In this document: one piece after another, positions 309-40,619 of the stretch | Position numbering within the stretch: position 1 is the stretch's first letter | Layout: each line of letters begins with the position of its first letter | DNA from: a virus | Length of the DNA: 64,000 nucleotides | Virus record (IMG/VR): IMGVR_UViG_3300045988_056969 | Span: 46,751-110,750 of that record | Strand: one strand, 5' to 3' | Notes under the pieces: model-generated | Database searches by the model: none | What the model was told of the DNA's origin: nothing | What the model saw: only the letters and a program-made list of their open reading frames with translations | Translations under genes and position numbers: made by a program

Positions 309-1589
309 TCATAGTTATAGTAATAAGTACCGTTCCCAAGTTTTTGGATTGTCTAAGGATAAACGTCCATTTGTATTCTATTCGGCTCTAACATAAGGTG
401 TTATTTTAAAATTTATAGGAAATTTGTATCTAAGCAAAGAATAGTGTAATCTCCTATTCTTACTTTTAAAATAGTAGGGTTTATTGTTATACATGAAATG
501 CACTCGAAAATGATTGTCATAATCAATAACCTCTACAATGTGAATATATTTATTATAAAACTTAGATATGTTAACTTCTTTTCCATTCCAGTTAGAGAAT
601 TTCAATCCAGTTAACTCCTCTACCTTTCTCAGCAAGTTCTTAGAGTTGCAAAATTTCATCCATCCAAAATAAGACCTCATTCTTCTATTCAATTCATCTT
701 TATCAATCTTATTCTATTTATATAGATTTATAAGCCTAAACATCCTCATTTTTATAGATTTTCTCAGTAGAACATGAGTATGATAGAATTTATAGCCTAC
801 GAAATTAATACCTCTGCTTTCTACAGGGAATATTTGATAATTAGGCTTCAACTCTAGGTTAAGAACCTGTTTCAAATATAGTTTTATAGATACTAATACA
901 TTTCTCAAATAATTCTTGTCATTACCAAGAATCACAATATCGTCAGCATATCGAAAGTAGTACTTACATTTTAACTCCTCTTTTACCCAGTGGTCAAAAT
1001 ATGTCAGATATAAATTTGCAAAGAATTGTGATAGATAATTTCCAATAGGAACTCCCTTCGCTGAATAAATTATTTCTTTCAACAGTTTTAATAGTTTTTT
1101 ATCCTTTATCTTTCTCTATAACATTTCGTATAAAATGTCGTGAGTTATAGAAGGATAGAATTTTTTTATATCCATTTTCAAGCAATACTTTGTTTCTTCT
1201 GGATGTTTCTATAACACCTTAAACAAATCATACTCTACTTTATGAATACCTCTATTTCGTATAGAGGAATATGTTTGGTCTATAAATATACTAGTCCAAA
1301 TAGGCTCCATAATATTCATTATAGCATGGTGAGTTATTCTATCTGGATAGTATGGAAGTCTAAAGATTAATCTTTCTTTAGGTTCGTATATTATAAAGGT
1401 ACTATATTCAGAGGTTTGATAAATCAAATCCCTTAACTTATCGGATAATTCCTTATTTTCTTTTAATCTATTCTTATCATGCTGCTTGATTCCACATCTA
1501 ATAGACTTATTTCTTCTGGCTTTATCGTCAGCTAGTTCGATGTTATCTTCAGCGTATACTTTCTCGTGCAAATATCCTACACGTTTCAA
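309..1589 (-). CDS. DGR reverse transcriptase; single gene requiring read-through of 4 in-frame TAG codons; real stop TGA at 309-311; start codon uncertain (TTG at 1587-1589)
   Basis: ORF-track fragments 1209-1589, 714-1082 and 378-692 share one frame and are separated only by TAG (plus-strand cta at 1209-1211, 1116-1118, 714-716, 378-380). RT motifs YPDRITHHAIM, FYPSITHDIL, PIGNYLSQFFANLYL (DGR-type I/LGxxxSQ), YADD. Lies next to a TR/VR pair. Confidence 0.8.
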
Positions 1590-1731
1590 TTTTTTATATA
1601 TTTCATCGGAAGCGTTCGAGAATTAACCTACTAACACCCTTCATTCAACACTACGTTATCTTTTGCCTAGAGGCAAGGATATTACTTAGCAAACTAAAAA
1701 AAATAATAAAATGTTTCTAAATATATAATAA

Positions 1732-1827
1732 CTTGACATTGGAATTGGCATTGCTGACGTCATTGTTAGAATTGAAATAGCTGAGACCTGCATTGCTGCC
1801 ATTATTCGCGTTGCTGCCTACTAGCAG
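1732..1827. repeat. DGR template repeat (TR), about 96 bp, non-coding, between RT and target gene
   Basis: Near-identical to 1932-2027 and (as reverse complement) to 29286-29375. Almost all differences fall where TR carries A in the coding sense. Confidence 0.8.
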
Positions 1828-1905
1828 TACTTTTTTGCCAATCAACGGTTTTTAGAAGTAATATCCTACGATTTATCATCTAAATCGATTTTTATATTGT
1901 ATATC

Positions 1906-3723
1906 TTAAGATACTCTATTCAGAGTCCTGAACCCGACATAGGAACCGGCATTGCCGACGCCAGCGCCAGAATAGAAATAGCCGAGACCCGCAAAGCCGC
2001 CATCATTCGCGCCGCCGCCCACCCGCAGCGTGCGAAGCGCTGTGCTGCTTGCGTTGCAGTAATGGTAATCGCAAATATAAGTAGTAGTACTTCCTCCAAC
2101 AGCGGATGGAATTATTTCAGCGGTTTCACCTAAGTCAAATGCCTTAATATAACCATCCGATGCTACTTCGTATCCTGCAACGGTTTTCTCTCCAACTACG
2201 TCTGTAAATTCCGATATGTTAGTAGTTGTATAGACAGTGCTAATCTCATTAGCAGCTGCTCTCACTACAACTACTCCGTCCAGGTTAGTCCAAATGTCTC
2301 CAAACGGATTATCGAATCCTCTCCAGCGAGGTACTTTAAATGTATGAGTTGCTACTGTATTTGTGCCATCTTGAGCTGTACATTCTGGAATAACTAAATC
2401 TTTTACTCCAGTGAAGTTACCAAGTTCATTGCAGTAACCACAAGGTGTAAGTGGATATGTTGCATTATACCCTAACCAACTTGTAGCTGCGTTAGCCCAA
2501 TCTGTAACTCCAGATCCTAAACCTCCTTGATGATATCCATCTGCAATTAACTCTGCATTATATGCAGCCTAAGAATTAAAATTAGCATATTCAATGACAT
2601 AATTCCAGTAGAATATCCATTTGTAATATTCATAGCATAGCAATTCTGAACCAGCATTTGTTGCATATGTTCTCATAGTAGCTCTAGAAATATTAGTTCT
2701 AGGCTTTCCTAAATCACTTCTGAATATATCCTTAGTTTCTAATTCTGTAGTTAGATAATCATCGTAGTTAGCTCTATTTCCTCCACCTCTAAATGCAGTA
2801 GTAGTATTAACTACTGATACAGCTTTTGGAGTTGCGGAGACTGTGGTATCAACTGTACTTCTGTATGCATCTATTAATAGTTCAGGAATTTCTACCCATG
2901 AATCATCAATTTTGACAGTAGAAGTTCTAACCCATCTTTTGTTTCCATCGCTGCCAGATTTTCCATAAAATTTAGGAGTATTAACTCTTACTGTTCCATC
3001 AGTTCCATCTAAGACAGATGGAGTTTCGCCGTCTTCTTTATAAGACCAGTCATCTGGAAACAGATAGTAATTTACTACATCATTGTTTGCTACACAACCT
3101 CTATACGCTGACTGAATAGGAAGAGATTTATGCAACAAAGGATTACCTATTCTAGTAAGTTCCGGAGATGCTACTGTAACATCCCATTCTACTCCATAGG
3201 AATATAAATCCATATTACTATTTAGCTCAGTAACCTACTTATCAAGCTTTTGTTGTGCCTTCTACAATTCTTCCCAAGCCTCATTTAGTGCTGTAAATTG
3301 CTCTTCTAGCTTAGAACTTGAATCTGCCCATTCAGCAGTACCATCTGCTGAGAAAACTAGCATCTATCCAGACGCTCCTCCAGATGGAATATGTTTATTT
3401 CCAGAAGTAGTTGGGTGTACATAATTATTAGCATTATTAGCTATAGTACTTAACTTTTCCTTCTCAGTTTCAGTATAATTGGCTTCAGAAAGTCCCTTTC
3501 CTAACTCCTTATCTACTTTGCCTTCAAGCTCACCCTTAGTAGCTAATTCACTAATATCCTAATGCTCAGTCAAATATCCACTATCATTCTGTAACTAAGA
3601 AGTTTTAGTTGGAATTGCATTAGCTTTGGCATATGTCGTATCTATAACATTTCCAGCACCATCGTAAGTAGCTTTTAAATCGTATGTGGTTTCCCCAACC
3701 TTTATAGATTTGATTGCTGCCAT
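1906..3723 (-). CDS. DGR target protein 1 (tail-fibre/receptor-binding-like, about 605 aa) with C-terminal VR; contains in-frame TAG codons; stop TAA at 1906-1908
   Basis: Frame-0 fragments 1906-2265 and 2569-3213 are joined by TAG (e.g. 2569-2571, 3235-3237, 3262-3264, 3364-3366). ATG at 3721-3723 lies just after an upstream in-frame TAA TAA (3733-3738). N-terminus MAAIKSIKVGETTYDL; Gly/Ala-rich C-terminus covers VR1. Confidence 0.65.
1932..2027. repeat. DGR variable repeat 1 (VR1) in the 3' end of a minus-strand target gene
   Basis: Alignment to TR gives about 25 substitutions, 24 at plus-strand T of TR (coding-sense A to N); one a-to-c change near the end. Confidence 0.8.
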
Positions 3724-3732
3724 ATCATTGTA

Positions 3733-6700
3733 TTATTAAAGTTTCACCAACTACATCGTGATCTATTCTCTCTATGGAAGCAGTTAGGTCCTCAACAGCC
3801 TTCTACAATTCTGCTTTAGTAGCATAGTTCTTGAGAACTTCCTAGTCTACTCCAGAGCCTCCTCCTATACTTCCTCCAACAACTTTTACTGGTTTGGCAG
3901 AACTCTTAAACTGTCCTTCAATATAAATTGTTCCCATATTGTTTAAAATATTAATTGTTCATTTTCTCCATCTACCTCTACACTAGAACCTGGCTATAAA
4001 GCGTCTATCTTTTTCTACAATTCGGCTACGGCCTAGCTAATTAGTTCTTCTACCTCAGCTTTGGTGTAGTATCTCTCTATAAGATATTCGCTCCTAACAT
4101 ATCCAGTATCTTGTAAATCTTTTTCTCCATAGGTGCAATAATAAGTATCTTCTTCAGTCTTACTATTCTCAACTAGGTCATCATAATCAGCTTGTGGTAA
4201 GCATACAAGTTTTGGTACTTCTTCAGTAATAGCAACTTGCTTGCCTCCAGCAAATAGCCTGTTATCTTCTGTGGTAAGTTTAACAGAACTCTCAATAACT
4301 TGCTCAGTTCCTGTTTCCTCAGAAGGTTCTCCAGTTGTTCCCTATTGTACTTCTTTTTCTCCAATTTTCTAAATAGTAATATCAGAAGTTTCTACTGATG
4401 TAGATTTCAAAAGCTCAGTGCTAAATTCTTTAGCAGCAGCAGCCTAATCATCCTGATATTTTTTCTAGGTAACAAATATGAAATCATCATCTCCGGTTTC
4501 AGGAGAGTCTCCCCTTAAACTTTCTTTTGTTACGTAATCTTCGGCTATCTAATCTGATAAATTAGATAATGACTATTGAGTAGCATAAGTAGACTGAGCA
4601 TTTTCCTTAGTAAGAAATTTGTCATCAACCTGCTAAATAGTATAATAAGCCTTAATATCTTCTGTAGTAACGTAGTTTCCAAGTTTTTGCAAACCTTGAA
4701 CTATTTCATCAATCTACTTCTTGGAGTAATAATTTGTAGCAACCCAGGACTGATATTGATTAGTAGTATGATAATTCTAATCCAAATATTCCTTAGTAAT
4801 ATAAACCTTTGCATCATTTGTAACGTCATATACATAGTAATATGTATCAGGCTCTACCGTCCCTTCCTCTACTAACTTTAGATACTCTTCTTCAGTTAAT
4901 GTTACTAAGTTCGGAATATCCGATTCAGTAGCAATCTAATCTTCACCTATAAATAATCCTTCAGACTTAACGTCTACTACTAACTAGCCCTCTCCCTCCA
5001 CTACAGGAGATTTTATCTACCCAACAGTGATGCTTTCTAAGGAGCCATCTCCATCTACCTTAAGAGTTTTATCTAACTCGTCTTGGATAGCCTACTAATC
5101 TTCCTCATATTCTTTCTTTGTAACGAAGACAAAATCATCTCCTTCCATTCCCTCTCCTCTAAGGCTTTCTTTAGTAACGAAAATATCGTTTGTTTCTTCC
5201 TTAGTATAATACTTAGTCAGTGATAGAGCTAAAGAATCGTTAGAGACATAATTAGTAGTTAATTCTTCCAGTGTAGCATAATCTGATAGGCTAGCAATAG
5301 TGTTATCTAAGTCTGTTCTAATCTATACTACAGTAGTATTAAGAGCCTTCTATTTTAATTGCTCTTCTATCTTTTTCCCCCATTCCGCGGATAGGTAAAA
5401 CTAGTTATCGTCTAAGCTATCCTCATATATATAATAATATGTCTCAGCATGAAGATATGGTTTACTTTCATCTATGGGCCTAAAATCGTCTGTAGTATTC
5501 TCAGACCATTCTTTATATTCAGCCTCTGTACAGGTGATTATCTAGATAGATTCATAGGATGCTTTCCATCCTTCCTTGTATTTAATCTTAGACTTATCAA
5601 TCAGCATATAAATATTTCCGTTATCTATGTTAGCAACGGTCATACCTTGATAAGCATACTTCTCTGGAATAGAATAAAGTTCGTCTAAGTTATTAACGAC
5701 TGTTCTATTATCGAGAGGCTTCGGAGTTTCTACGGTTAAAGCGACACCTAAGGTAGCATCACCTGTATATTTAAATGCCATTATTGTGATAGAATAAAGT
5801 TAATTTGATGTGGCAATGCTGAGGAGTAAGTATCTTTCTTAGTCCATACCTTGTAAGTAAATCCATTTATCTACTCGGTAGACGTTTCCCAACCACTTAG
5901 GTCTACATTTAAATATCCAAGTCCTCCATCTACGGTAAATGAATTTAACTATGTGTTACTTCCTGGCAATTTTATAATAGCCTTACCACTTAGTGAAAAT
6001 GTGATAGTTCCAGACGATTGTCCAAAAGGAACTAGCGCCTATTTAATCACACCATCAGTATTACCAGAATACCAAGGATATGTGGCTACTACCTAAGCGG
6101 TAGCGGAAATAGAACCAGCTTCTACTCTCTTATCTGTAACTTCTCCTTTATTATTTATCAAATATTCTCCAGCGGCATAACTCACTGTACCAGAGTGAGT
6201 ATAAGTACCAATAGAATTATATGTATCAGACTCTACAGGAGAACTGTTATAAGTAATAGTTTCTCGTCTGTCAGTTTCTTCTCCAGCATCATTCTTTATA
6301 AATGTAAGTGTAGGAGTTAATAAAGCAGTTCCCACTTCTACTATTTGAGAAGTAAAACTATAATAAAGCTATGGGTATACTAAATCTCTAACTACTGTTG
6401 GAAACAGTAAAGTATCAATAATTTCATTAAAGGGCTTGCCCTTAAGTTTCTCTACTGTAGTCCCTTCAATTACTGTTGAAGTAGTATCATCTGGGAGTTC
6501 CGTCTAATAAGTAGCTATAGTTTCTAAGTTAGTTTGTATATTAGTAATACTTTCAGTATTAGCTTCTACTTTAGTATTTGTCTCTTGTTGTGCTTCCTAA
6601 GTTTTCTATACTTCTTTCTTTGTTTCTTCTAGAGCAGGTTCAAGATTCTTAACATAGATACCTGGAAGGATAATAGAAGAGGTTTCCTCTCCAATCTCCT

Positions 6701-9700
6701 ATTCTATTAAATGAATAGCATTATCTTCCTAAGTAGATAAAATCACCTCTAAGGAATTATTTTCCTTTAGTTCTATAGTTTTGGAATTTTGGAGACTATT
6801 CTTAATCCAATTAAGAATGTTTTTATCAACATCTATATTCTCAATAGCATTGTTCAACTCAACTATAGCTTCATTGATTTTTACTATTTCTTCAGATAGA
6901 TTATTAATTCCTTTTCTATTAGTATCAATTTCTCGCTGTAAATCCTCCTTCAATACAGATATAGAAGTTCTAATATTGCTTATATCGACTTTCAGTTCTT
7001 CTATTGCTTCTGTATTAGATTCATATTCGCTAATAAAGTATAGGGCATAGTCTAGGGCATCCTTCACAGTATTAATGCCTTCTGCAACGTCACTAGTATA
7101 GGTCCATTTTTGTTCTATATACTATACTAGGTCTTTTTGCAGTTCTATGGTTCCACTAATGTTTCCCCACAATAGACTCTACTCATCAGCAATACCTAAG
7201 TTCTTTCTTACTTTAGCTTTTTCTAGTTCTGTCCTATATTCTCCTAAATAGTTATTTCTTAAGAGAGGTATAGGCTCACATTTTATAGGCTTACCCTTTT
7301 TACCACAAGGCACTATATCTGCGTTACTTACCGAAGTGTAAATAGACTGTATCATTCTAGTTTAATAATTGCTATTTAATAAATTCGTGATTATCTAGTC
7401 TTACAGGTAGGTTAATAAAACAAATTAGATTAAGAATATCTTGATAATCTGGTTTATATCCCTTTTTGAGTTTTCTTAGAAAATCCTCATACCTTTTAAT
7501 AGCCTTTCTCTTAAGAGCATCCACAACCTATACGTTTATGTCCATGGTAGTGATTGTCACAGAATCCTCCACAGGTACGGAACATCGCTAGTAATCTTTC
7601 AGCCTCCATGAATTGTTTAAAGCATATTAAATAATCTATAATGTTAAGAGTCATCCATATAAAATCTCGAGCAAATATATCTGCTTCCTAATCTCTAGTT
7701 AGACACTTATTTAGTAAAGCATCAAAGAGTTTCTTACAATAATTAATGTAACACTACTACAAGTTTCCTGTAAAGAAAACATCTACCTTACATTTTTTTA
7801 TAGTAGTTCCTTCTATGTTTCGTTCAAGAACTTCTTTAACTGTACACTCTTCTAGCTTACCTTCTACTTCTTTATATAATTTTTCTCCATCAGTAACATA
7901 GATAGTCTCATAGTATTCCTTGTATTCGTCCGATGAATTTTCATACCATTTCATATTAGGAATAATGATATGGTCTACTACGTAATAACCATCATCCTTG
8001 ACCTTAAACATACACGAGTCTAAGTCTTCTGTATGGTCATTAAGTAGGACATCTATCAGAGTAGCATCGCTTATACTAACTTTGATGATAGTATTCAAGG
8101 TAGCACTCTCACTATACTTATAGGAGTCGTAAGAAGTTACTACCTCTACATCTTCATCAATATACTAGCCATATTCTTTTGAGAAATCTTCTATCAGTAT
8201 TTCCCCATTAATTTGGGTATGTATATCAATACTAAATTCCATATTGCAATAATATTAAGTGTTAGGCCATTGACCGTATTGAGCTGGTGTAGAAAAAGGT
8301 CCCCACTTTCCAGATTGCTTTATACGTCTAGACATAAAAACAGAAGTAAAAGATAAACTAATATCTTGTGGATAGTCAGTCCAGGTATAAGACTATCCAT
8401 CTGGAGTAGGAGGTAATTTATCAATCCCAGAGGAGGGCTGTCCATTCCAGTAGTAGTTATAGTCATAGGCTTTAATAGAGGTTACTTCTGTGGTTTCTCT
8501 CCCGTCAGAATCTATATAGAGAGGATCTCCTTTTTCATTCGTTTTTTGTTTATACTCTATAACTGGTGTTATTCCCTCGGTTCTAGTATATATAGTCTAT
8601 ATAATAGTAGAGACATCACTCGCTACTATTTCATAGATAGTAGTTCCCTATGATTCATCAGCTCCCTAAAAAGTAAATTTAGTTCTTTTCCATATATATG
8701 GATTCTCTTCTGTTGGAAGCTCAAAAGTATCAGACCACTACTTACTTGATAGTTTTATTTCAGATTCATCGGCAGTATTAGCAGGGAGATAATGTATTTT
8801 AATAATAATACTATTAACTGCTTCACTTGAACCGGATAAATCTGATACCTACTTAAATAATTTTTTTAAGTCGTCTTCTACATTTGATTTAGAACCGGAA
8901 GCATTACTTATAATTACTGTCCCATCAGAGATAGGATAAATCTACTACTAATCTTTGTTGTATACAATTGTTCCAGTTGCCATATTAATGTATTTGTCTT
9001 ATTTTGTCATTATATGGATTTCCATCATGAAGCTAAGCCAACTCTATTTCAGTTCTTTTTTCTTCAATATCCATTTGTCTATCTTTATAAGTAGAATCAG
9101 ACTGAGCTTTAAGCCAGTTAACTTTATATTCTAACTGCATCTTCTACTATTCTAATCCCAGTCTCTATTCATCTAAGCTTTCAATCTTTTGCTGAGCTTT
9201 CTATAATTCTTGCTGTAACTACTAAGCCTATTGAGAGGTTTCTTCTAATTTTTCTTGTAGTTGCTGAAGCTGATTATTTTCCTCTTTGCGAACTTGAACA
9301 GCTTTCTTAACCTTATATTTAAGGTCTGTCAGACTCTTAGATGTAAGAGCCTCAAAAATAATATCTGGATCCATCTGTTGACTTTTTACGAACTCTGGAA
9401 TGATTGCTTTTATAGTCTATAGATCTTCCATCACTTCTGAACTAGCAGTAATATGAATATCGTAGTCAGTAACAGTAAAATACTCAGGAAGTGCTGTAAA
9501 TATCTGTTGATATTTATCCCCAAGTATAATAGTTCCAGTTAATCCTTTCTTATAAGTAACTTTAGCCTAATTAAGACTATCTAGTAGTATCTCGCAGGTT
9601 ATTAAATCCATCTGCTAAAAATAGTGCTTAGTTACTATATACGAGTTAGCTACTCCCTACTTAATATTAGTAACTGCATCTCTAGTTTCTATACCGTTAA

Positions 9701-11347
9701 GTCGTTCCCTAAATACTCCAGTTATTGATGATGTAGTTTGTTCTACTGATTGAATAGCTAATTCAATAGCCTATACAGCCTATGCTTTTAAGGTATCATC
9801 AAATCCGTTATATATCTAGTTTGGAGCTTGCTGTCCGTCATTCCTACCTTCTTGGCTTGAGTCTATCCACATGATACCACCTTTTTTATAAGCTAACCAT
9901 TTTTGTACTCGTTCTGGCCATTTAACTCCTAAGTTGGTAGGCAACAGAGACATATCCATAATAACTCCAGCAGTACCACTATTAGCTATTAGATTATCTC
10001 TATAATAGTTTAATAAGTCGTATCTATCCTACAGATGTGCACATTTTAATATAAGAGAATAAGGCTACTAAGAGCGATTTAAGAAATATACTCCATTTAC
10101 CGATAAAGAACAGAAGTTGGGATTATCTTTAGACCTCATAACAGTCTTGTCTAATCCTCTAAGAATATATATCTCTTCTCCTATTCTGATAGTATTGTAT
10201 CTCTACATCACAAAATCATCATCTGTTTCAATCCATTCAACATCATAGACTGGGATTAACTAGAACCTATGAGCACTATATTCATTGTCTGGATAGCCGG
10301 GAATGGTTTCATGATTCTAATCTTCATTTACTACTGTACAAGTATCTCCATATACTCTTCTATAAACAGCAGCTGAATCATCAGCTCGCCATTCATCTTT
10401 TAGTCTTCTTAAATCTTCTCTAGATATTTCTTTGCCATATTTAGCTAAAATCTAACTCTTACTCATCCACTTTCTTACTACAACTCTATATGAGTTCCTT
10501 ACATATGGAGATTCTGGATTTCTATCAACAAATGTATTAAGTGGGTTTAATACCTCTATTTCAATATTAGTTCCAGAAGCCGATGATTTCACTCTAAAGA
10601 ATGTATAACCAGTAATTAATAAGTCTGTTAGTAACTAACGTAACTTAGTAATTAAATCGGTTTCTCTGGATTGCATAATATAATGTACTATATTCTAAGC
10701 TGCAATTTCATATTGAGAAATAAAGGATTGGTCAATATCCTATATAATTTTATCTAACTAAGTCTTTACAGCTTTATCAGTAATATCCTTGCCATCAATA
10801 AACTTAAGAATTGAATTACTTAAATGGTCTTTCAAAAACTTTACTATTCCCTTGGTTATTTCTAGCTATTTTTCTCTTGTTATATTACTGATAGTATCTG
10901 AATCTTTGCAAGAAATTTTCGGAAGTATAGGAGTTCCTAAATATTCTCCAACTAGAGCATCTACGTGTTTCTTTAATAAAGGCGTAAACTCTACCGAAGT
11001 GGGGCTACCTATTCCGAAGTTTTCTTCCAGATAACGGAACTATTCAGGATCTCTTTTACCATTATAATAATTATAAGCTTTCTGTAACTCATACTTATCA
11101 TATACAAGTTCCGCAATAGCCTCGTTTGTCTTGTCTATCAATTCCTTCTCTTTCATAACATAAATTATGTTGTTCTGGAGGAAGTTTAGTAGCGTTATAA
11201 TACTTAACTCTTTGTAACTTCCTACTTCTTAATTCTTCCTTAATAAATGGCAGAAATTCTTCGTCTGGTAAATCTGCTATTATTACTAATGGCATTTCTG
11301 ACCTATCAAAGTTAAAAGAGACTTTATACCCAACTGGGTCTAAACTC
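3733..11347 (-). other. Late virion-structural gene block on the minus strand; genes fragmented by very frequent in-frame TAG; includes coiled-coil fibre-like fragments and a portal-like C-terminal region near 9.0-9.96 kb
   Basis: Only short same-strand ORF fragments (4173-4364, 5542-5781, 6093-6335, 6729-7067, 7757-8098) and none of 60 aa or more between 8.1 and 11.1 kb. Manual translation of 9003-9960 with TAG=Q gives a continuous protein with a portal-like Gln-rich coiled-coil C-terminus. Confidence 0.45.
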
Positions 11348-13711
11348 TCAATATCTAGTCCGCCTATATACTCCATTTTGTACAAGTCCCTCATATATTC
11401 TAGGATCACTTGTTTCAACTCTGTATGGGTCATCATATTCGTTTCTTTGCATATTAAGTTCAGGAGTTTTCTTAGTTGGAATAACTCCAAATCTTTTAAT
11501 TCCTCTCTCGTCGTAATAGTAACCAAAATCTTGGAACTATTCAACTTCTTTCTCCACAAGTACGGGCTGTCTTCCTGATAGCTCTTGGTCTGCTAACTCA
11601 GTCATACCTACAGCGGCTACAATATCATACTTACCCTTATTTTCATCATTATATGCAGTGAACTATTCTAGCATTTCTTCGAACCATATAGTATGGCAAT
11701 AGTCTTCTATAAAGGCGGCTGTTAAATCAGTATGCTATTCGATTATAGTTTTTGTAGCAGGAGTTCCATACTATTTAGTAGTTCCATTTCTAACGTCAGT
11801 TAGAGTAGCTCTTGGGCGCTTCATAAAATAGTTAAGGCATCCTTTTTCTCTAGCCCAAGTAACCATACCCATACGAGTAGCTTCTATATTTATTTTACAA
11901 TTATAATAGCGAGCTAAACACATAGCTATTTTATAGGCTTCTCTGATGTCTCCAGGTCTATCCTTGTACATAGCAACATACTGAGGGTCATTCATACCAA
12001 ACGCACGTTTCTTAATCATTATGCAGAAATCAGACGGGTCTCTGGTTTCCTTAGAAGTCTAATTCGCTCCAATATCAATACCGTCTATACCTGCTACATA
12101 TAAGTCTCGCATCTCTTTATAAACTGGAACTTCAAAATCCTAGCCATTATCTTCTGCCTCCTATCTAAGCTTTTCCATTTGTTCTTTATATAAGTCAGAC
12201 CATATTGGATGCTCTAGAATTTTTACTTTGCCATTGCTGTTAGGAATCCATTTAAAACCATCAATATTATCCTAAGTATGTTTATTATTTTTGTAAAAAT
12301 AATCAATATAACCACATTCGGGTCTTGGGCCAATTTGTTTAAGTCTTATATTAGCTATCTATTCGGCAACTAAAATTTTATTAAACTTATTAACACCTTC
12401 TAGATTAAATGCTTCTTCTGCATTCCAACAACGTTCAGCGCATTTCTTTAGGTAGTCTTCTGGTACAGCTAACAGATTATCTCGCTCCTCCTATAAGAAT
12501 TTCTTATATTCCACAGTATTACATACTCCTCTGTGGTCCATAAATTCTGGATTCAAAGATTGTATAAAGTATGGAATAAAGAATCCACTCTCTATAGTAG
12601 TCCCATCCTAAGTCCAATTATGTCTAAATGGAAGAATCTTATATGCTCTTGGATTATAGTAAATCTTTTTTAAGCCCTCTAGAGGAGCACCCATATCACC
12701 GCCAGTACCTCCAAACAACATTGTTCCACGAGGCATACCTTGAACTTCACAAAGTTCTTGACCTTGTACCACAGCGGTATCAAGTCCAGGCCAGGAACCA
12801 GCTTCATCATATATTAATAAATCTACACGGTCTCCACGAATATTAGATGGTTTAGCTCCGTTAATTGCTACAACCTCAGATTTAAATCCTACGTCTTCAA
12901 ACTAACCATTTATTTTGATTTGTTTACCTGATTTCTTTCTCAAATCCTGGTCAATAAGTCGCAATTTAAAAAATCCTCCTCCAGTACAGGTATTTAAGAA
13001 TGTAAGAGCATTATCAAACTTACTAAAGGTACCCTTAAGGAAGGTATCATTAAAGCAAGTAATCATAACCCTACTTCTTCTAATAACAGAGTACATACGA
13101 GCAGAAAGAGAGGCGTTTATTTCAGAGAATCCAATAGAACGAGCTTTCATTAAAGCTGCGTGCTTGTGTAGCACTCTAGCCATCTATAGATAATGAAAGA
13201 ACATATAATGTGATGCAAAGAATATTGGGAAGTCATTATCAGTACCCTCACCAGAGGCTTTCTGCTAGTCAATAGTAGGTAACTAATAGAAATTTAAGAA
13301 GAAGTAATTATCTCCAGTAATGGTGTATCCATTAACTGTCATTCCATACTTACATCTTCTATATTGCTCTTTCCAAAATTCGTTGTACCGCTTACTATCT
13401 CTAAGGTAGGGACAGTATTGACCAGTTCGTTTATATACTTCCCTAGTCTCGGTAAACCAATCTGGATTAAAGTCCAATCCATGAGTTTCGTCAATAGGTC
13501 TGTATCCAGTTATTTCATAAGATAAGGTAGGGTCAAATACTTCTATTTTATCTCCTATTTTAACATCCCAATAGTCAGAATTTCTGACCCTTTCCTCTCT
13601 TATTTTCTATACTAATTCTCTAGCTTCTTTAGCATCCTCTTTCTATTCTTTTTCTCTTACCTAATCTACAATATTCTATATTTCTTCAGGTAATATCTTT
13701 TTTCTTGGCAT
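11348..13711 (-). CDS. terL: Terminase large subunit (787 codons) with about 25 in-frame TAG codons; stop TGA at 11348-11350
   Basis: Same-frame fragments 11771-12019, 12902-13183 and 13283-13477 are joined by TAG. Walker-B-like VDLLIYDEAGSW; nuclease motif YVAGIDGIDIGAN...DPSDFC; length typical of TerL. Confidence 0.75.
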
Positions 13712-15823
13712 AATTAAAAGTCTCCTGGGTCAAAACCATCCACAGCTCCAGCTCTAACAGTAGATTGTTCAGTAAGTTCTTTCTTAACCTAGTCTTCTAG
13801 TGTTATGAGTTCTTCATGAACTTTGTGAAGAGTAGCCATTTCCTTCATTACTTTTTCAGCCTGGAATACTGGCTTGCCGTTATTATCACGCTCATTTAAA
13901 TCTACAATAGTTTCGAAATAATCAATAAACTAGTCTGCAGCTCTTTTAGCTGCTTCTAGTAATTTTATTGACTTGTTTGAATCTTGTAACGCTCTGTATT
14001 TCCTACAAGCTTCTCTAAATATAGGGTCATTAAATTCTGACTCTGTCAATCCAGAATCACTAATAGCTTCGTCATGTCGTTCATGTTCCGAATACTAACT
14101 GTACGGACTTTTCCAGTCTATAGCTAAATAAATGTAAGATAGTTCTCTAGTAGCTCTATCCTTTTCTGCAGATTTATCCCTCTAGATTAAAGCCTTAAAT
14201 TCCTTAACTAGTAATATCTCTGGTTCATTTATTTCTAGCTATTTAGTTAAAGTGTTATAGTTAAATACATTCATAATCATTAATCATTATCATACACATT
14301 AGATAATCTTATTATTTCTTTTTCATTTTGGAACCGCACTTATTGACTTTCATTTTTGAGCCACAAGCGTCTTTCTTAGCATATTGTTTTCTGTCAGGAA
14401 CCCATTTTCCTCCCTGGAAATTACCCTTATGTCCTTTATTGGCCATAGTTTCCTAATCATTGTATTTATTGATTGATATAGAATCTCTTGAGGCTTCGTC
14501 TCTAGCAGATTTCATATCTTTCTTATACTAAGCTCTTCCTGCCTTAAATTTATCAACTTCATTAGCTTTCTTAGTAACTTTAGTTCCTTTTTGTGCTTTC
14601 TGGCAAGCTTTACAGATTCTACCGCCTTGCTTAAAATATACAAGCTCTTCTCCTTCTGGACATACTCCTTTTAGCTTCTTATAATACTCAAGCTTAGCTC
14701 CAAGCCTAGCCATTACTCCTCCTTGCATTTTCTGCATAAATTCCTGATACTTAGCTTTAATGCCGTCTTCACCTAATTGTTCAGCATAAGCTTGTAAATC
14801 CTGTTCAGACTATATCTGAACTCCCTATGACTGCGCATCCTATATTAAATATGCCACAAACGCTTTTTGTAATTCTTGTTGATTATTCATTGTTCCTCCT
14901 TGTTGAAATTTAGTTGTATGTCCCGGAGATAATGTTAATGGTTTAGCTTCTGATTTTCTAGAATTCCATACATCTCCAAGATAATTAAATAATCTCTATA
15001 ACCCCCTATGTATCCCAAAATCTCCTCCTTGTACTGTATTTCCCATAGTATATCTAATGGTAGAAGGTTGTTTAGGCTTACTTGAAGGCTACTCGGCTCT
15101 TGTCTATTCACTAGCTGGCTAACTGCCTCTTGTAATAGTTGGTATTCCTCTACCCCAAGTAGTTCCTTTTGTTGTAGCAATTAGGTCTGGAGCTTCTATA
15201 CTAATCTAAGTATCTGACTAAGGAATCTGAATGGTAGAAGGTTGTTTAGGCTTACTTGAAGGCTGTCCTAAGTCTGTAGTATATACAGAATTTCCCCACA
15301 TAAACTGTTTTAGTCCTCTCTCTCTAGCAGCCCTAAAAGCTGTCTTAAAATCTTTAACACCTCTTAAATCATCCTAAGCTATTTCAGCAGTAGGAAGAGG
15401 TTCTAATCTTGTGGGTAATGAAGGCATTTCTGGAGCATCAAAATATGCCTCTTGTAACTTAGGCATTTTCTATTGTGCGGTTCTTCTAATAATGTCTGGA
15501 TTAGTTGCCCAAGTCTAATGCAACTACCTCAAGGTTCTCTCATCTAAGTCCGCATCTCCGTAAATAATTTTGATATTACGCATCAATTCAGGGTCAAACT
15601 ACACTTTAGCCATTACTTTTCTACTTTAATTAAATCCTTAGTATTAAACACTGCTTCCTACATAAGTCCGGAATCAGTAAACCATCTACATCTTAATCCT
15701 CGTAATCCTTGGTTATCTTTAAATAAAGCTGCTTCTCTTCTTAGAACAAGCATAACTGGAGAATGCATTACTTTACACTACCGTAAAGTAACACAATCCC
15801 CAGGCTTAAAATAAACTTTTTCA
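13712..15823 (-). other. Additional late genes with in-frame TAG (fragments 14528-14737 zinc-ribbon CxxC..CxxC; 14935-15180)
   Basis: Short minus-strand ORF fragments in several frames; boundaries not resolved. Confidence 0.3.
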
Positions 15824-20287: not shown

Positions 20288-20304
20288 AACTATTAATTTT
20301 GGCG

Positions 20305-20376
20305 TTGCCCTACTAGGATTCGAACCCAGACTAAATGATTTAGAGTCATCTGTGCTGACCATTACACCATAGGGCA
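20305..20376 (-). tRNA. Suppressor tRNA, anticodon CTA (reads UAG); clean cloverleaf; probably Gln-derived
   Basis: Minus-strand TGCCCTA-T-G-GTGT-AATGGTCA-GCAC-A-GATGA-CTCTAAA-TCATT-TAGT-CTGGG-TTCGAAT-CCTAG-TAGGGCA-A. All stems pair. The D-arm is identical to the tRNA-Gln(TTG)-like gene at 34198. Confidence 0.8.
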
Positions 20377-23343: not shown

Positions 23344-23413
23344 TCCCTACTAGTATAATGGATTGCGTCTCCCTTTAAAGGAGAAGATTCTGGTTCAAGT
23401 CCAGAGTAGGGAT
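23344..23413 (+). tRNA. tRNA with anticodon TTA (UUA; would read UAA, and UAG by wobble); ochre-suppressor-like
   Basis: TCCCTAC/GTAGGGA acceptor; anticodon arm TCTCC-CTTTAAA-GGAGA; T-arm TCTGG-TTCAAGT-CCAGA. Confidence 0.6.
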
Positions 23414-23448
23414 CTTCATAGTTATATTATTTGTGATTATTACTTTTC

Positions 23449-27325: not shown

Positions 27326-27727
27326 ATGGAATTAAGAGAATTTTCTACTTTTACTAAATAGGGAAATGTAGGACTTGCTTATGCTATTGCCTATTATTCT
27401 AAATTAGGGTATACTATTAGTATTCCCTTAACTGATTCACAAGATTATGACATAATAGTTGATACTGGAAATACCTTACTAAAAGTGTAGGTAAAGACTA
27501 CAACTTGTAGAAGAGATAGTGGAAACTACTAGTTAAACTTAAAAGTAAGTGGCGGAAATAGAAGCGGAACAGGAAAAGTAAAGACCTTCGATTTAAATAA
27601 ATGCGACCTGATATTCGCAATGACTGAGTAGTTTGAATTTTATTCTATTCCGAGGTCTGAAATTTCTGCAGCATCTTCTATTACTCTTGGAGAAAAGTAT
27701 TTACCTTTCAAGGTGTCTTTAATTTAA
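27326..27727 (+). CDS. YraN/UPF0102-like PD-(D/E)xK endonuclease (133 aa) with 4 in-frame TAG; sits inside the interrupted tRNA; absent from the ORF track
   Basis: MELREFSTFTK-Q-GNVGLAYAIAYYSKLGYTISIPLTDSQDYDIIVDTGNTLLKV-Q-VKTTT... fits the G.GE..A..YL...GY.IL...GEIDLI...VEVK pattern; TAA at 27725-27727. Confidence 0.55.
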
Positions 27728-35969: not shown

Positions 35970-35989
35970 CTACACTAATCTTATTGCTT

Positions 35990-36418
35990 ATGGATAGAGA
36001 ATTGAGAAGAGAACTTTCTAAAAGAAAGTGGATTTCGAGAGCTAAAAAGGTTTACAACGCTTGCGGTAAATTTTACGTACCTGTTGCCGGGATTAAAGCC
36101 AATGTAAGGTATAATGTTCCTATAATAAGGAATAAGGCGTTGAAGGTCTGTGAGTCAATTACGGATTTCCTTGATAGTTCTAAATACGCAAAGATGCTTA
36201 AGAATTGTACTTCTCCTTATAGAAGCAGAATGATGCAATATGAATACAAGAAAGAGAATAGAAAGGACAGATATAAAGCAAAAAGAGATATTCAAGAAGG
36301 TATTCAAGAATATGAATCTAGGGACAATCTTTCGTGTTCATCCTGCATTTTCTATGATAAAGGCTTTTGCGAAAAGGGATTATTAATGACTGAAAACTGC
36401 CCAGAATATTGGGATTAA
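35990..36418 (+). CDS. Hypothetical Cys-containing protein (track ORF trimmed to the ATG downstream of the tRNA)
   Basis: ORF 35783-36418 overlaps tRNA-Cys; the first ATG after the tRNA is at 35990. Confidence 0.45.
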   Translation: MDRELRRELSKRKWISRAKKVYNACGKFYVPVAGIKANVRYNVPIIRNKALKVCESITDFLDSSKYAKMLKNCTSPYRSRMMQYEYKKENRKDRYKAKRDIQEGIQEYESRDNLSCSSCIFYDKGFCEKGLLMTENCPEYWD

Positions 36419-36421
36419 AGT

Positions 36422-36781
36422 ATGGACAAGTATATTAATGGAAGTTTAGTAAAGAGAGTTTTAGTTTTTAAAACTAGAAAGCATCCTGATTGGGTACATT
36501 ATGTGAACGATTACCGATTCTTGTTTTGGAAAATACATCGAGATTATTGGTATTATTGGGACCCATGTTTTGGAACTTATACGGAAGAAAAAATGATTTC
36601 ATCTTTAGAGAAGAGATATGCCTTCTACAAGGATGGAATAGTATATCAGAAACCTCATATCATTTTAGAGTTCTCTAAAAGACATGATGAATCTATCTAT
36701 TTTGATAGTGACGAAGAAATGGAGGGATGGTTTGAATCCTTCATGGAAGAATTTGGAAAACCGTTTATTTACATAGACTAA
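36422..36781 (+). CDS. Hypothetical protein
   Basis: ORF track. Confidence 0.45.
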   Translation: MDKYINGSLVKRVLVFKTRKHPDWVHYVNDYRFLFWKIHRDYWYYWDPCFGTYTEEKMISSLEKRYAFYKDGIVYQKPHIILEFSKRHDESIYFDSDEEMEGWFESFMEEFGKPFIYID

Positions 36782-36902
36782 TACCTTTATCCCAGTTTAG
36801 AGCTTAGCTCAAATAGTGAATAATAGTAGCTATTGGTTAAAACGAGGTGGAGTGCCAGACGAAAGACTGGAATTAACATAGTTTAACTTTGAATCTCTGA
36901 CT

Positions 36903-37247
36903 ATGCGGAGTGTTATTATGGCAGAATTGATTTTCTTAGCTAATGGAAAATGCGACTTGAAGTTCCACGCTCATCCCAAGAATTTCAAAAGGGTTGAGAA
37001 GTTCAACTACAAAAAGAACTTTTTCAAGGTTTACGTTGACCGAAACGACAGCGTTTACGAGATAACTCGCTGCGAGGTGGTTACATGGAAAACCATAGAG
37101 AAAGGCAAGAAGAAATTTAACGTCCCTGACGAGGTGAAAGAAACTCGTGATGCTCACTTGTTTGACAAAATTAAGGGGAATCCGTTCAAAATCGCTATTA
37201 CTAAGATAGCTGGCGAGATTGATATGCAGGAGCTGTTATCTGAGTAA
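36903..37247 (+). CDS. Hypothetical protein
   Basis: ORF track. Confidence 0.45.
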   Translation: MRSVIMAELIFLANGKCDLKFHAHPKNFKRVEKFNYKKNFFKVYVDRNDSVYEITRCEVVTWKTIEKGKKKFNVPDEVKETRDAHLFDKIKGNPFKIAITKIAGEIDMQELLSE

Positions 37248-37282
37248 TTCGTTTAGGAGAGTATCGTAAAACTCTCCATTAT

Positions 37283-37357
37283 GCAGGTGTGGTGTTAATG
37301 GATTGAGCACGCCAGACTTCCAATCTGGAGGGGAGAGTTCGAGTCTCTCTACCTGCA
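37283..37357 (+). tRNA. tRNA-Gly (anticodon TCC)
   Basis: GCAGGTG/TACCTGC; D GTGT/GCAC; anticodon arm CCAGA-CTTCCAA-TCTGG; T-arm GAGAG-TTCGAGT-CTCTC. Confidence 0.75.
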
Positions 37358-37362
37358 CATTT

Positions 37363-37434
37363 GTGGGCATAGCACAACGGTTAGTGCATCGGCTTGCCAT
37401 GCCGAGGATGTGAGTTCGATTCTCATTACCTACT
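37363..37434 (+). tRNA. tRNA-Gly (anticodon GCC); one acceptor mismatch
   Basis: GTGGGCA/TACCTAC; D GCAC/GTGC; anticodon arm TCGGC-TTGCCAT-GCCGA; T-arm GTGAG-TTCGATT-CTCAT. Confidence 0.6.
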
Positions 37435-37449
37435 CAAAATTTAAGTTTT

Positions 37450-37674
37450 ATGAAAATAAAGTGTACAGTATGTAATAAAGAATTTTATTATGGAGACCAT
37501 AACTCTCCAATGTTTATTGATGAGGTTTGGAACAAGATAATAAATTACTTTAAGCTAACCAATTTTGAAAAAGAAGCTGCAAAGAAATTCTCCTCTTATT
37601 ACAAAGGGGAGGTAAAGATTATTATCCAGACCACCATGTGTTTATCTGTAGCGAATGTGCGGAGAAGGCTCTAG
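37450..37674 (+). CDS. Small zinc-ribbon protein; the C-terminal CxxC continues in the -1 frame (frameshift or sequencing error)
   Basis: CTVC...then HHVFICSECAEKALGREITDKD is encoded in another frame around 37615. Confidence 0.35.
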   Translation: MKIKCTVCNKEFYYGDHNSPMFIDEVWNKIINYFKLTNFEKEAAKKFSSYYKGEVKIIIQTTMCLSVANVRRRL

Positions 37675-37752
37675 GTAGGGAAATAACTGATAAGGATATT
37701 AATGATTCATTATTTAATATCCCATTTAGAGAGAAGTACTTTAAATCTTAAT

Positions 37753-37837
37753 ATCCGTGTGGGTGAATGGTTTAGCCATCAGTCTGCAAAACTGAAAAGA
37801 GAAATCTTTAATGAGGGTTCGAATCCCTCCACGGATT
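37753..37837 (+). tRNA. Atypical type-II tRNA with anticodon GCA (Cys), a 17-nt variable arm and discriminator U
   Basis: ATCCGTG/CACGGAT perfect acceptor; anticodon arm TCAGT-CTGCAAA-ACTGA; variable hairpin AAAGA-gaaa-TCTTT; T-arm GAGGG-TTCGAAT-CCCTC. Confidence 0.55.
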
Positions 37838-37848
37838 CTAATTTTAAA

Positions 37849-38493
37849 TTTAAAAATATGGCATATATTTATTGCATTACAAATTTAATTAATAGCAAGC
37901 GATACGTAGGAAAAACTACTACTTCTATAGAAGAGCGCTGGAAGGAACATTGTTATGACTTTTAGAAAGAAAGATGCAACAAAAGACCTTTATATGATGC
38001 CATGAATAAGTATGGTGTTGAGAACTTTATGATAGAGGAATTGGAATATGTAGATAGTAACTCTGAATTATCTGAAAGAGAAATCTATTGGATAAAAGAG
38101 CTAGGAACTTATGGTTCTAATGGGTACAATGCCTCTAAAGGAGGAGATGGCACTATTCTATACAATCATAGTGAAATTGTAGAATTAGCTAGATTGGGAT
38201 ATACTAGTTCTTAGATACAAGAAAAAATAGGGTGCTGTAAAGACACTATTTACAAAGTTTTGAAGGCAAATAATATAAAAATTAGAAAAAGTAACGCAAA
38301 GTTAATTGCTTAGTATGACTTAGCAGGTAATTTTATACAGGTATTCTTTGGTTCCAGAGAAGCTTAGGAATGGTTAATTAATAACGGAATTACTGACAAT
38401 AAATCTGCATAGAGTCATATTATAGGATGCTGTAAGAATAAAACCAAATCATAGTATGGCTACATTTGGAAATATCTTCCAGAGCCTATTTAA
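37849..38493 (+). CDS. GIY-YIG homing endonuclease (about 214 aa) with 6 in-frame TAG; track fragments 37702-37965 and 38002-38214 are pieces of it
   Basis: MAYIYCITNLINSKRYVGKTT...EERWKEHCYDF-Q-KERC...NKYGVENFMIEELE...REIYWIKELGT..GYN is collinear with I-TevI. The C-terminus IGCCKDTIYKVLK...KSQYGYIW (NUMOD-type DNA-binding region) is reached only by reading through TAG at 38212, 38338, 38386, 38428 and 38464. Confidence 0.7.
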
Positions 38494-38610
38494 TCTTTAA
38501 ATCACTGTTTCGACATTTTCAGTCTAAATGCCGTGTCTGAAGACGTTACCAACCAGTCGTGCTATACGGTTAGAATAGTCCGTGCCTCACTGGTGATAGA
38601 GGCATCCCTG

Positions 38611-38634
38611 GGTAGCGGATGTAAAGTGGCTACC
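38611..38634 (+). other. Stem-loop GGTAGC-ggatgtaaagtg-GCTACC immediately 5' of a tRNA (same stem as motif copy c, different loop)
   Basis: Direct reading. Confidence 0.35.
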
Positions 38635-38639
38635 AATAT

Positions 38640-38718
38640 CGTGGAGTAGAGAAGTGGTCATCTCGCTAGGCTCATAACCTAGAAATCGTCATAAACGGTT
38701 CGAATCCTACCTCCGCAA
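38640..38718 (+). tRNA. Initiator-like tRNA-Met (anticodon CAT; C1 x A72 mismatch); T-arm poorly paired, so possibly degenerate
   Basis: CGTGGAG/CTCCGCA-A; D GAGA/TCTC; anticodon arm CTAGG-CTCATAA-CCTAG; the T region AAACGGTTCGAATCCTAC pairs poorly. Confidence 0.4.
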
Positions 38719-38962
38719 CGAAACTCCTTTTGTGGCCCTGAATTAGATTAATTATTAACAATTTTAAACTTTGATGTTATGAAGAAAGTAATTAATGTTG
38801 TGAAGAAAGCTGCTAAGTGGTATTTTGAACAGAGTTCTAAGAGCTATACATGGTTAGTTTCTGGAACTATTCCGCCTCCTTATAGAGGTCTAGAGTAAAG
38901 ATACTACTAAAAGGTAAGTACCAAAGGGGTACTTATCTACACCCGTGGAGAAAATTAACTAT

Positions 38963-39034
38963 TGGGGTATAGTTCAAAGGTCAGAACTTTTGACTGTTAA
39001 TCAAAGAATCATGGTTCGAGTCCATGTGCCCCAG
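38963..39034 (+). tRNA. tRNA-Asn (anticodon GTT)
   Basis: TGGGGTA/TGCCCCA; D GTTC/GAAC; anticodon arm TTTGA-CTGTTAA-TCAAA; T-arm CATGG-TTCGAGT-CCATG. Confidence 0.75.
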
Positions 39035-39559
39035 CTATTGACCTTATATTAGATTATGCATCAGTGTGATTATTGTTGTTGGTACTACAGTGGAAATTGT
39101 GATTGTCCATATGTAATGAAGAAACAAGCGTGTGAAAATGCTTTGAAAACTAAAGAGAGAAATGAAAGACCTATTAGAAAAGTACAAAATGTTTCAAACT
39201 CCAAAACTAGCTAATGAGATTTCATGGAAAGACATGAAGGAATTTAACTCTTATATGAAAGAAGTAGTTCGTGATTATAAGATTAAACAGGCTAAATCAA
39301 TTCAGAGTGCTAGAAACGTAATAATATCCTGACCTGGCAAGGTAAAAATCCATTCGGGGTTTAAGTTGAAGCCAGTCCCTGCGAAATCATAGAGACCTTT
39401 TCTGACACGATAGTCGATGAACTGAGAGTAGCATGGTTGCGGACTTATGCTACTAGAACATGATTCAAACAAAAAAACTTATCTGGTGTTGTTAAGTTGT
39501 GGAATCTTAACAGTGGAAATTTATGGGTATGTCACCAATTAAAAAGAAAATCCCAAAAA

Positions 39560-39632
39560 TGGGCCGTTAGCTCAAATGGCTAGAGCGCTGGTTTTGCACA
39601 CCGGAAGATAGGGTTCGAGTCCCTGCGTGTCC
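39560..39632 (+). tRNA. tRNA-Ala (anticodon TGC) with G3-U70, but acceptor positions 5-7 are not complementary
   Basis: GGGCCGT vs CGTGTCC; D GCTC/GAGC; anticodon arm CTGGT-TTTGCAC-ACCGG; T-arm TAGGG-TTCGAGT-CCCTG. Confidence 0.5.
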
Positions 39633-39841
39633 ACAAACTTTATTTAAAAAATTATGAAAGTATATGTAGTTGTAGTAAATTATCACCAGCTAATGCTCCT
39701 CAAAATTATGAAACTGATTGCCAAATCTTCTTAGACAAGAAACAGGCAGAGAAGTATAAAGAGGCTAAGGAAAAAGAGTTTCCTATTAGATGGGGAGGAG
39801 AGTATAATCATTGTAAACTAATTAAAAAGCATTTGTAATAT

Positions 39842-39915
39842 CGCGGGATGATAGCAGAGGTAGCTAGTCAGGCTCATAACCTGAAGGTCGTCGGTTCGAA
39901 TCCGAGTGGGGGATC
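39842..39915 (+). tRNA. fMet-like tRNA (anticodon CAT), close to E. coli initiator up to the T-loop, but the 3' acceptor strand TGGGGGA is not complementary to 5' CGCGGGA
   Basis: D TAGC/GCTA; anticodon arm TCAGG-CTCATAA-CCTGA; AGGTC-GTCGG-TTCGAAT-CCGAG, then TGGGGGATC. Confidence 0.4.
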
Positions 39916-40616: not shown

Positions 40617-40619
40617 GAT

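Follow-up and report, generated by a model that had tools for sequence, protein, structure and literature searches.

We analyzed a 64,000-nucleotide stretch of viral DNA (IMG/VR record IMGVR_UViG_3300045988_056969, positions 46,751 to 110,750; hereafter, the window), in which a tRNA array carries a gene that we designate as HEG-A. The gene occupies an 801-bp interval between a tRNA-Cys and a tRNA-Met gene, both of which are complete, and its reading frame contains six TAG codons. We consider it highly probable that HEG-A is an intact, free-standing GIY-YIG homing endonuclease gene, that its TAG codons are sense codons read by a phage-encoded suppressor tRNA, and that it has recently spread in a phage in which TAG encodes glutamine. 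The gene, its two neighbors, its predicted domains (numbered in amino acids, aa) and its TAG codons are as follows, with L numbers designating related loci.

37753..37838, plus strand: 86-nt tRNA-Cys(GCA) that has a long variable arm and a 3' end 20 nt before the HEG-A ATG
37858..38493, plus strand: GIY-YIG homing endonuclease gene HEG-A, 211 codons and a TAA, with six TAG codons read as sense
37858..38136, plus strand: predicted GIY-YIG catalytic domain, aa 1–93, from Pfam, the I-TevI alignment and the fold
37963..37965, plus strand: TAG codon 36; CAG (Gln) in paralog L013, TAG also in L020, L100 and L102
38167..38271, plus strand: predicted helix-turn-helix, aa 104–138, resolvase/homeodomain-like, with sub-threshold Pfam matches (E 0.005–0.016)
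38212..38214, plus strand: TAG codon 119; CAG (Gln) in L013, L020 and L043, Glu in distant homologs
38299..38481, plus strand: predicted C-terminal beta-beta-alpha-alpha-beta DNA-binding module, aa 148–208, NUMOD1-like at a sub-threshold level
38311..38313, plus strand: TAG codon 152; CAA or CAG (Gln) in most TAG-less homologs
38365..38367, plus strand: TAG codon 170; Ala, Ser or Gly in most homologs, Gln in L024
38410..38412, plus strand: TAG codon 185; variable column, TAT (Tyr) in L020
38452..38454, plus strand: TAG codon 199; Ala conserved in nearly all homologs, Gln being an unusual substitution
38640..38719, plus strand: tRNA-Met(CAT), the downstream neighbor of HEG-A

The HEG-A frame runs from an ATG at 37858 to a TAA at 38491–38493. 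An earlier note on this DNA had given the gene as 37849–38493; the end was correct, whereas the true ATG lies 9 nt downstream of the proposed start, the in-frame residues that precede it in the plus-strand translation being FKN. Read from the sequence, the internal stops of the frame number six (codons 36, 119, 152, 170, 185 and 199) and are all TAG, as the note had counted, and internal TAA and TGA codons are absent. Standard-code annotation breaks the gene into the two fragments that the note had named (37702–37965 and 38002–38214), both of which are in the list of open reading frames (ORFs), and code-15 gene callers place its start 52 codons upstream of the true one, so that it runs through a tRNA gene, as in the database entry P0001. 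Based on window-wide triplet counts (TAA plus TGA, 0.051 per codon; TAG, 30% of stop triplets), a run of 211 codons free of TAA and TGA has a probability of ~1.7e-5 per interval, with ~0.1 expected over the six frames of the window, and the occurrence of TAG at six of six stops has a probability of ~7.5e-4. A chance origin of the frame is irrelevant because homology spans every TAG. Without suppression, translation would end after 35 residues, and since this first TAG sits within the catalytic domain, no enzyme would be possible.

Domain searches were performed on the HEG-A translation with TAG read as Gln. The Pfam GIY-YIG profile (PF01541) matched aa 1–91 across TAG36 and over its entire length (positions 1–78 of 78; E=6e-13, 49.3 bits against a cut-off of 22.6), and phrog_314, annotated as homing endonuclease, matched aa 1–206 (E=4e-31), spanning all six TAG codons. 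None of the domain matches ended at a TAG codon, the pattern that the earlier note had set against its own reading. The catalytic domain of I-TevI (PDB 1mk0 and 1ln0) aligned with aa 4–93 (E ~1e-9, 34–35% identity), which bears out the collinearity with I-TevI that had been noticed before, and Y5, Y16, R27, H31, E75 and N91 of HEG-A correspond to Y6, Y17, R27, H31, E75 and N90 of I-TevI. These catalytic residues are invariant in an alignment of 50 homologs. The protein database holds more than 1000 homologs of HEG-A, and most of the 120 listed are 208–214 aa long, i.e., full length. Among them are proteins of cultured phages with the standard code, namely Enterococcus phages BC611 and VD13 (aligned with aa 1–207) and Staphylococcus phage PH15 (aa 4–207), which are ~32–34% identical to HEG-A and are annotated as SegB-like; two of these homologs interrupt terminase genes. 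To judge from these matches, HEG-A is an intact GIY-YIG homing endonuclease when TAG is read as Gln.

The structure was predicted with AlphaFold from P0001, a database copy of HEG-A that is 99% identical and carries a spurious N-terminal extension of 52 residues. In the model, a low-confidence linker connects the nuclease domain to a helix-turn-helix at aa 104–137 (pLDDT 82–91), which is followed by a C-terminal module at aa 148–208 (pLDDT ~95). Foldseek ranked I-TevI first, followed by the HNH homing endonuclease I-HmuI and the helix-turn-helix of Tn3 resolvase. The nuclease part is predicted to adopt the alpha/beta GIY-YIG fold (Foldseek probability 1.00 and TM 0.79–0.82 against 1mk0 and 1ln0), and the C-terminal module shows a weak fold resemblance to the DNA-binding region of I-HmuI (E=0.05, probability 0.98). 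The earlier note had proposed a C-terminal NUMOD-type region containing IGCCKDTIYKVLK. A DNA-binding region is indeed predicted there from the phrog_314 match and the confidently modeled fold, whereas the NUMOD1 label (PF07453) is only sub-threshold (16.6 bits against a cut-off of 22.8, aa 150–170), and IGCCKDTIYKVLK corresponds to the helix-turn-helix. Despite the sub-threshold label, a DNA-binding region of the homing-endonuclease type beyond the TAGs is, on the profile match and the model, real.

To assign the residue inserted at TAG, the codons at the six positions were compared in 28 other full-length homologs, read from DNA. Over all TAG-containing columns, the residue most enriched opposite TAG was Gln (2.7-fold). 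Position 152 is Gln in most homologs (invariant across 50 close homologs in the alignment) and TAG in three further recoded ones, and positions 36 and 119 are CAG, one transition from TAG, in the nearest paralogs. At these three positions the Gln that the earlier note had asked about was found, but positions 170, 185 and 199 (mostly Ala/Ser, variable and a conserved Ala, respectively) are generally non-Gln in relatives. Judged by these columns, the residue inserted at TAG is predicted to be glutamine. The ratio of nonsynonymous to synonymous substitution rates (dN/dS) of HEG-A against paralogs L013 and L020 is 0.14–0.22, a rough estimate with synonymous sites near saturation, and in the segments downstream of TAGs the nonsynonymous proportion (pN) is well below the synonymous one (pS). 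A dead copy in L017 is frameshifted, and TAG, TGA and TAA all occur beyond the shift.

The carrier appears to be an uncultured human-gut phage that is distantly related to crAss-like phages. Its terminase is 26–29% identical to Crassvirales terminases and 43–44% identical to those of unannotated human-gut phage contigs, and the contigs carrying HEG-A are 94–192 kb long. The features of the window that bear on its genetic code are as follows.

315..15613, minus strand: recoded late module, with terminase (11348–13711), portal (8985–11156) and tail proteins
20304..20376, minus strand: predicted suppressor tRNA(CUA), 66.3 bits with the Rfam tRNA model, on the same strand as the TAG-rich late module
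23344..23414, plus strand: tRNA(UUA), upstream of the tRNA array, which could decode UAG too, by wobble
27326..27727, plus strand: second endonuclease-family gene (PF11645 PDDEXK_5, E=1.8e-18), with four TAG codons read as sense

Once TAG is read as sense, the late module falls into long genes with 4–28 TAGs each, and TAG accounts for 124 of their 247 Gln codons (50%); profile matches run across 19 TAGs in the terminase and 28 in the portal. Among the tRNAs of the window, the one nearest to tRNA(CUA) is the phage's own tRNA-Gln(UUG), whose D-arm is almost identical. Homologs of tRNA(UUA) are a tRNA(CUA) in L020 (266–336) and a tRNA with a CUG (Gln) anticodon loop in L084 (about 11534–11576), which suggests an anticodon series from Gln(CUG) through CUA to UUA; a similar Gln-to-UUA "pre-emergent" suppressor has been described by Yutin et al. 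On account of tRNA(UUA), in-frame use of TAA was sought in the window, and no convincing pair of long same-frame segments joined by one TAA was found. Directly upstream of tRNA(CUA), in the minus direction, ORF 20515–20916 (minus strand, 133 aa) contains four TAGs and heads the minus-strand block; the next five listed ORFs in that direction (15.8–20 kb) are TAG-free.

HEG-A shares the codon dialect of the late structural module, though it is located in a replication/tRNA module that avoids TAG. Thirty-nine plus-strand ORFs of this module (8,329 codons), including those for a DnaB-like helicase, a Toprim primase-like protein, an SF2 helicase, RNase H and ATPases, contain no TAG, i.e., 0 of 244 Gln codons. 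Among the plus-strand ORFs examined, internal sense TAGs were found only in HEG-A and in one other endonuclease gene, ORF 27326–27727; this context, which the earlier note had overlooked, is the most informative observation at the locus. TAG makes up 6 of 8 Gln codons in HEG-A and 4 of 5 in ORF 27326–27727, and the joint share (10 of 13) differs from that of the neighbors with p ~1e-15 in Fisher's test and from that of the late genes with p=0.086. ORF 27326–27727 also belongs to the tRNA array, where it sits between two tRNA-Tyr genes (26570–26654 and 27734–27818), and PF11645 is the family of the intron-encoded endonuclease I-Ssp6803I. In the remaining TAG-bearing plus-strand ORFs, the TAG either precedes the likely true start or is terminal with a back-up stop 0–6 codons on. 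The apparent TAG-ended genes at 21241–21708, 39942–40634 and 45056–45373 have a back-up TAA or TGA 0–6 codons downstream, which would limit the damage done by TAG suppression. Pfam scans of about 35 other plus-strand ORFs revealed no unrecoded homing endonuclease family. ORF 61534–62079 (plus strand, 181 aa), in which codon 4 is TAG and an N-terminal motif recalls the DNA-binding modules of endonucleases, was considered as a third case and dropped, as it had no Pfam match.

The same contrast recurs elsewhere. Endonuclease genes with 2–9 TAGs are found in L013, L020, L026, L028 (two copies), L048 and L051, and those in L100 and L102 have two TAGs each; most same-strand neighbors of the endonuclease genes at these eight other loci are TAG-free. 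Pooled over loci, TAG accounts for 49% of the Gln codons of the endonuclease genes, compared with 50% in the late genes. The idea that endonuclease genes are over-recoded relative to late genes was abandoned because the difference was not significant, either in the window or in the pooled shares. TAG36 is common to several diverged family members, while the remaining TAGs are lineage-specific; therefore, the family diversified inside recoded phages, which fits the long residence in recoded genomes that had been suggested in the earlier note.

Comparison with related contigs delimits two segments that bear on the mobility of HEG-A.

37865..38634, plus strand: presence/absence segment, 770 bp here, replaced by ~34 bp in L092 (contig 070130)
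37370..38460, plus strand: block free of mismatches to L001; the corresponding run starts at 37676 in L002 and at 37606 in L009

In L092, tRNA-Cys is followed by the ~34 bp and tRNA-Met; HEG-A is absent, only its leader and first two codons being present. In twelve contigs, HEG-A differs by 0–1 nt (99.8–100% identity), whereas identity in the left flank (35000–37250) drops to about 82% in seven of the ten contigs that were profiled across the flanks. Such a mosaic of identity is expected from homing with co-conversion and indicates that process, or at least very recent recombinational spread. Paralogs occupy other tRNA-flanked sites, following tRNA-Leu in L013 and lying between tRNA-Pro and tRNA-Tyr in L020, and they have TAGs at other positions as well; the window has no gene at the L020 site. 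In L002 (6783–7600), a second GIY-YIG gene with three TAGs, HEG-B, has inserted behind tRNA-Met, and a 15-nt repeat of the T-loop/3' end of tRNA-Met, ATCCTACCTCCGCAA, delimits it. L018 and L019 (6001–6650) carry a recombinant of HEG-A and HEG-B, with tRNA-Met deleted.

The closest functional parallel is offered by phage T4. SegB, a free-standing GIY-YIG endonuclease of the T4 tRNA cluster, recognizes a T-psi-C stem-loop motif, cleaves tRNA genes at their 3' ends and drives the inheritance of its own gene and of neighboring tRNA genes (PMC2330249). HEG-A is likewise a free-standing GIY-YIG gene between phage tRNA genes that is absent in relatives and has tRNA markers co-inherited in its flanks, and its best annotated full-length homologs bear the SegB-like label; cutting at 3' ends would also fit HEG-B of L002 with its tRNA-Met repeat. 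T4 differs in that it uses the standard code and in that the restraint proposed for segB is not stop-codon recoding: segB expression is thought to be restrained post-transcriptionally, for which a hairpin that hides the ribosome-binding site (RBS) or RNA processing has been proposed (PMC2330249). I-TevI, whose RBS is hidden in a hairpin, is translated only late (PMC2330249). HEG-A resembles I-TevI in its catalytic domain, which is collinear over aa 4–93 with a TM of 0.8 and conserved Y/Y/R/H/E/N residues, and in its modular build of a nuclease, a flexible linker and a C-terminal DNA-binding region with a helix-turn-helix. Unlike HEG-A, I-TevI is intron-encoded and has a zinc finger in its DNA-binding region, and HEG-A has the extra C-terminal beta-beta-alpha-alpha-beta module that is weakly like part of I-HmuI.

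We propose that the six UAGs are decoded by the Gln-like tRNA(CUA) at 20304–20376, possibly also by tRNA(UUA) at 23344–23414. The enzyme would cut gene-less alleles at or beside tRNA genes in the manner of SegB, and the gene would spread through recombinational repair with co-conversion of its flanks. Dependence on UAG would confine nuclease synthesis to the phase in which the suppressor tRNA is abundant, a gating that would serve the same end as the RBS-hiding hairpin that T4 uses for I-TevI.

Three other readings would change what HEG-A is or where its codons came from. A decaying pseudogene, in which the TAGs are ordinary nonsense mutations of a dead gene, agrees with the decay of homing endonuclease genes after fixation, as exemplified by the frameshifted copy in L017, and with the TAG at the conserved Ala of position 199. 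However, stops that are TAG in six of six cases and the lack of any frameshift set HEG-A apart from the dead L017 copy with its mixed TAG, TGA and TAA; moreover, purifying selection (dN/dS of 0.14–0.22, with pN below pS beyond the TAGs), intact catalytic residues, downstream domains predicted to fold with confidence and the use of TAG as sense in the remainder of the phage led us to reject this reading as extremely unlikely. Group I introns interrupt cyanobacterial tRNA genes, and we considered whether HEG-A lies within such an intron that splits a tRNA gene. The full-length homologs inside split terminase genes of Enterococcus and Staphylococcus phages and the 141-nt non-coding stretch behind the HEG-A ORF would agree with this, but Rfam scans for intron families (the whole window at gathering thresholds and 37200–39200 at E<=5) gave tRNAs and noise alone, the flanking tRNAs are both complete and the presence/absence segment is intergenic. 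In addition, the minimum free energy of the downstream stretch (38497–38722) is no better than that of shuffles (z=0.35), and this stretch is present in L013 without an adjacent endonuclease gene. A group I intron was thus rejected as very improbable, and HEG-A is, by its sequence context, free-standing (Seg-type) and outside any intron or intein. Finally, the TAG content might have been imported from a recent donor phage or module that uses TAG in all genes, rather than acquired by adaptation within the lineage. Horizontal movement is evident, as phages whose flanks have diverged carry HEG-A at 100% identity; yet in every related locus examined the endonuclease gene lies amid mostly TAG-free same-strand genes, and all carriers seen are TAG-recoded, so that this setting is normal for the family. 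We regard such an import as unlikely, and it would leave the identity of HEG-A unaffected.

Neutral drift, in contrast, concerns the role of the TAGs and is a serious contender, though short of an even chance: the TAGs would be sense codons without any regulatory role, CAG-to-TAG changes piling up, once a suppressor is present, wherever early translation is not under selection, as in a selfish endonuclease. It agrees with the pooled TAG share of the endonuclease genes, which is not higher than that of the late genes, with the CAG codons one transition away at positions 36 and 119 in the nearest paralogs and with the AT-rich genome (35% GC). Drift fits less well with positions 170, 185 and 199, which are non-Gln in relatives and hence not simple CAG-to-TAG changes, with the other plus-strand ORFs examined, many of which are small, of unknown function and plausibly dispensable and none of which carries an internal sense TAG, and with the repetition of the same contrast in unrelated loci. 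Several points count against our own interpretation of an intact, recently spread gene whose synthesis is gated by UAG. The substitution at TAG199, in place of a conserved Ala, may be mildly deleterious, and the "empty" allele of L092 may have arisen by deletion instead of being a naive target. The labels early and late for the two modules would hold only as far as gene content and analogy carry them. The plus-strand tRNA(UUA) upstream of the array is a possible second reader of UAG, and the idea of a timer would be weakened if this tRNA were made early. The pooled shares of 49% and 50% suit plain drift as well as they suit selection. The proposed gating may have been selected for, or it may have arisen incidentally through C-to-T drift in a gene not required early; drift would fit the data about as well as selection. 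The broader idea that recoding is a general, selected translation lock for selfish nucleases of unrelated folds (GIY-YIG and PD-(D/E)XK) in the TAG-free replication/tRNA module, which in TAG-recoded phages would systematically use the late dialect, is tentative, and we hold it to be rather unlikely.

The surroundings of HEG-A have further characteristics. The tRNA-Cys at 37753–37838 has a 14-nt insertion in the variable region relative to the tRNA model (Rfam, 56 bits), and an ordinary 75-nt tRNA-Cys is present at 35896–35970. The tRNA-Met at 38640–38719 is 80 nt long, with an initiator-like C1:A72 mismatch, ~7 extra nucleotides before the T-arm and a low Rfam score (39 bits). Upstream of it, a 133-nt non-coding segment (38502–38634, plus strand) has no Rfam match and is absent from L092; the stretch that contains it (38502–39039) has a 98.7% identical counterpart in L013, located after a normal tRNA-Cys with no endonuclease gene beside it. 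A promoter scan of 36800–39300 gave nothing above shuffles, Bacteroidetes-type and phage-RNAP promoters being outside the models of the scan, and the sole plus-strand terminator-like site adjoining HEG-A in this region is the acceptor/T-arm hairpin of tRNA-Cys. Before tRNA-Cys, a Zn-ribbon-like ORF (37450–37751, plus strand) is broken into the overlapping frames 37450–37674 and 37638–37751, which a frame shift near AAAGGGGAGG (about 37606–37615) would rejoin; an assembly error is unlikely because the segment is 99–100% identical in related contigs (0–2 mismatches). A NAMPT-like ORF (50090–50839, plus strand) stops at a TGA, having covered the NAMPT_N domain and no more than the initial 44 positions of the NAPRTase domain, and may be a truncated or interrupted gene. 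Three plus-strand tRNAs called by Rfam were missed or called differently by ARAGORN: a 137-nt match at 27736–27872 that overlaps the second tRNA-Tyr, a tRNA at 39561–39633 with the anticodon loop TGC (Ala) and a partial Met-like tRNA at 39851–39906.

The idea of a recoded selfish endonuclease is already in the literature. Borges et al. observed that, in Agate phages, the endonuclease of a group I intron located in an early gene is preferentially TGA-recoded and proposed that the in-frame stops block its production until late infection (bioRxiv 10.1101/2021.08.26.457843). HEG-A is similar in being a selfish endonuclease gene in an early region that is rich in the reassigned stop codon, unlike the surrounding genes. 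The Agate gene differs in that TGA encodes Trp, the endonuclease is intron-encoded and the phages belong to another clade, whereas HEG-A uses TAG for Gln, is free-standing and lies in a tRNA array, and here two endonuclease families and many paralogous loci are involved. In crAss-like gut phages, stop-codon reassignment, including that of TAG to Gln, is established as largely restricted to late genes, and ORFs in introns of Zeta crAss-like phages carry multiple reassigned stops (Yutin et al. 2021, PMC7886860); the described example is TGA in PolB introns, and the contrast with neighboring genes was not the point of that study. TAG-to-Gln reassignment in other crAss-like phages is described as proteomically validated (PMC9523058), and homing endonucleases are a frequent feature of Zeta crAss-like genomes that varies among close relatives (PMC12386605). 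What is added here is a TAG/Gln case, free-standing genes in a tRNA array, a single genome with two unrelated endonuclease folds and repeated occurrence at many loci. Taken with the second endonuclease gene of the array and the related loci, HEG-A carries what Borges et al. had seen in one family (TGA, intron-encoded) over to TAG-recoded crAss-like phages and to free-standing genes.

HEG-A is thus a clean natural case of a mobile element that would depend wholly on the non-standard code of its carrier. The tRNA arrays of these phages are mosaics shaped by such elements, which bears on comparisons of tRNA content and of tRNA-based counter-defense. If the translation lock were true, the nucleases would be made only once the suppressor tRNA is active, so that replicating phage DNA would be protected early; marker exclusion would be timed to late co-infection; and the elements would be confined to recoded phage lineages, with the code acting as a barrier to their spread. 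These findings suggest that selfish nucleases can be timed or contained by the genetic code.

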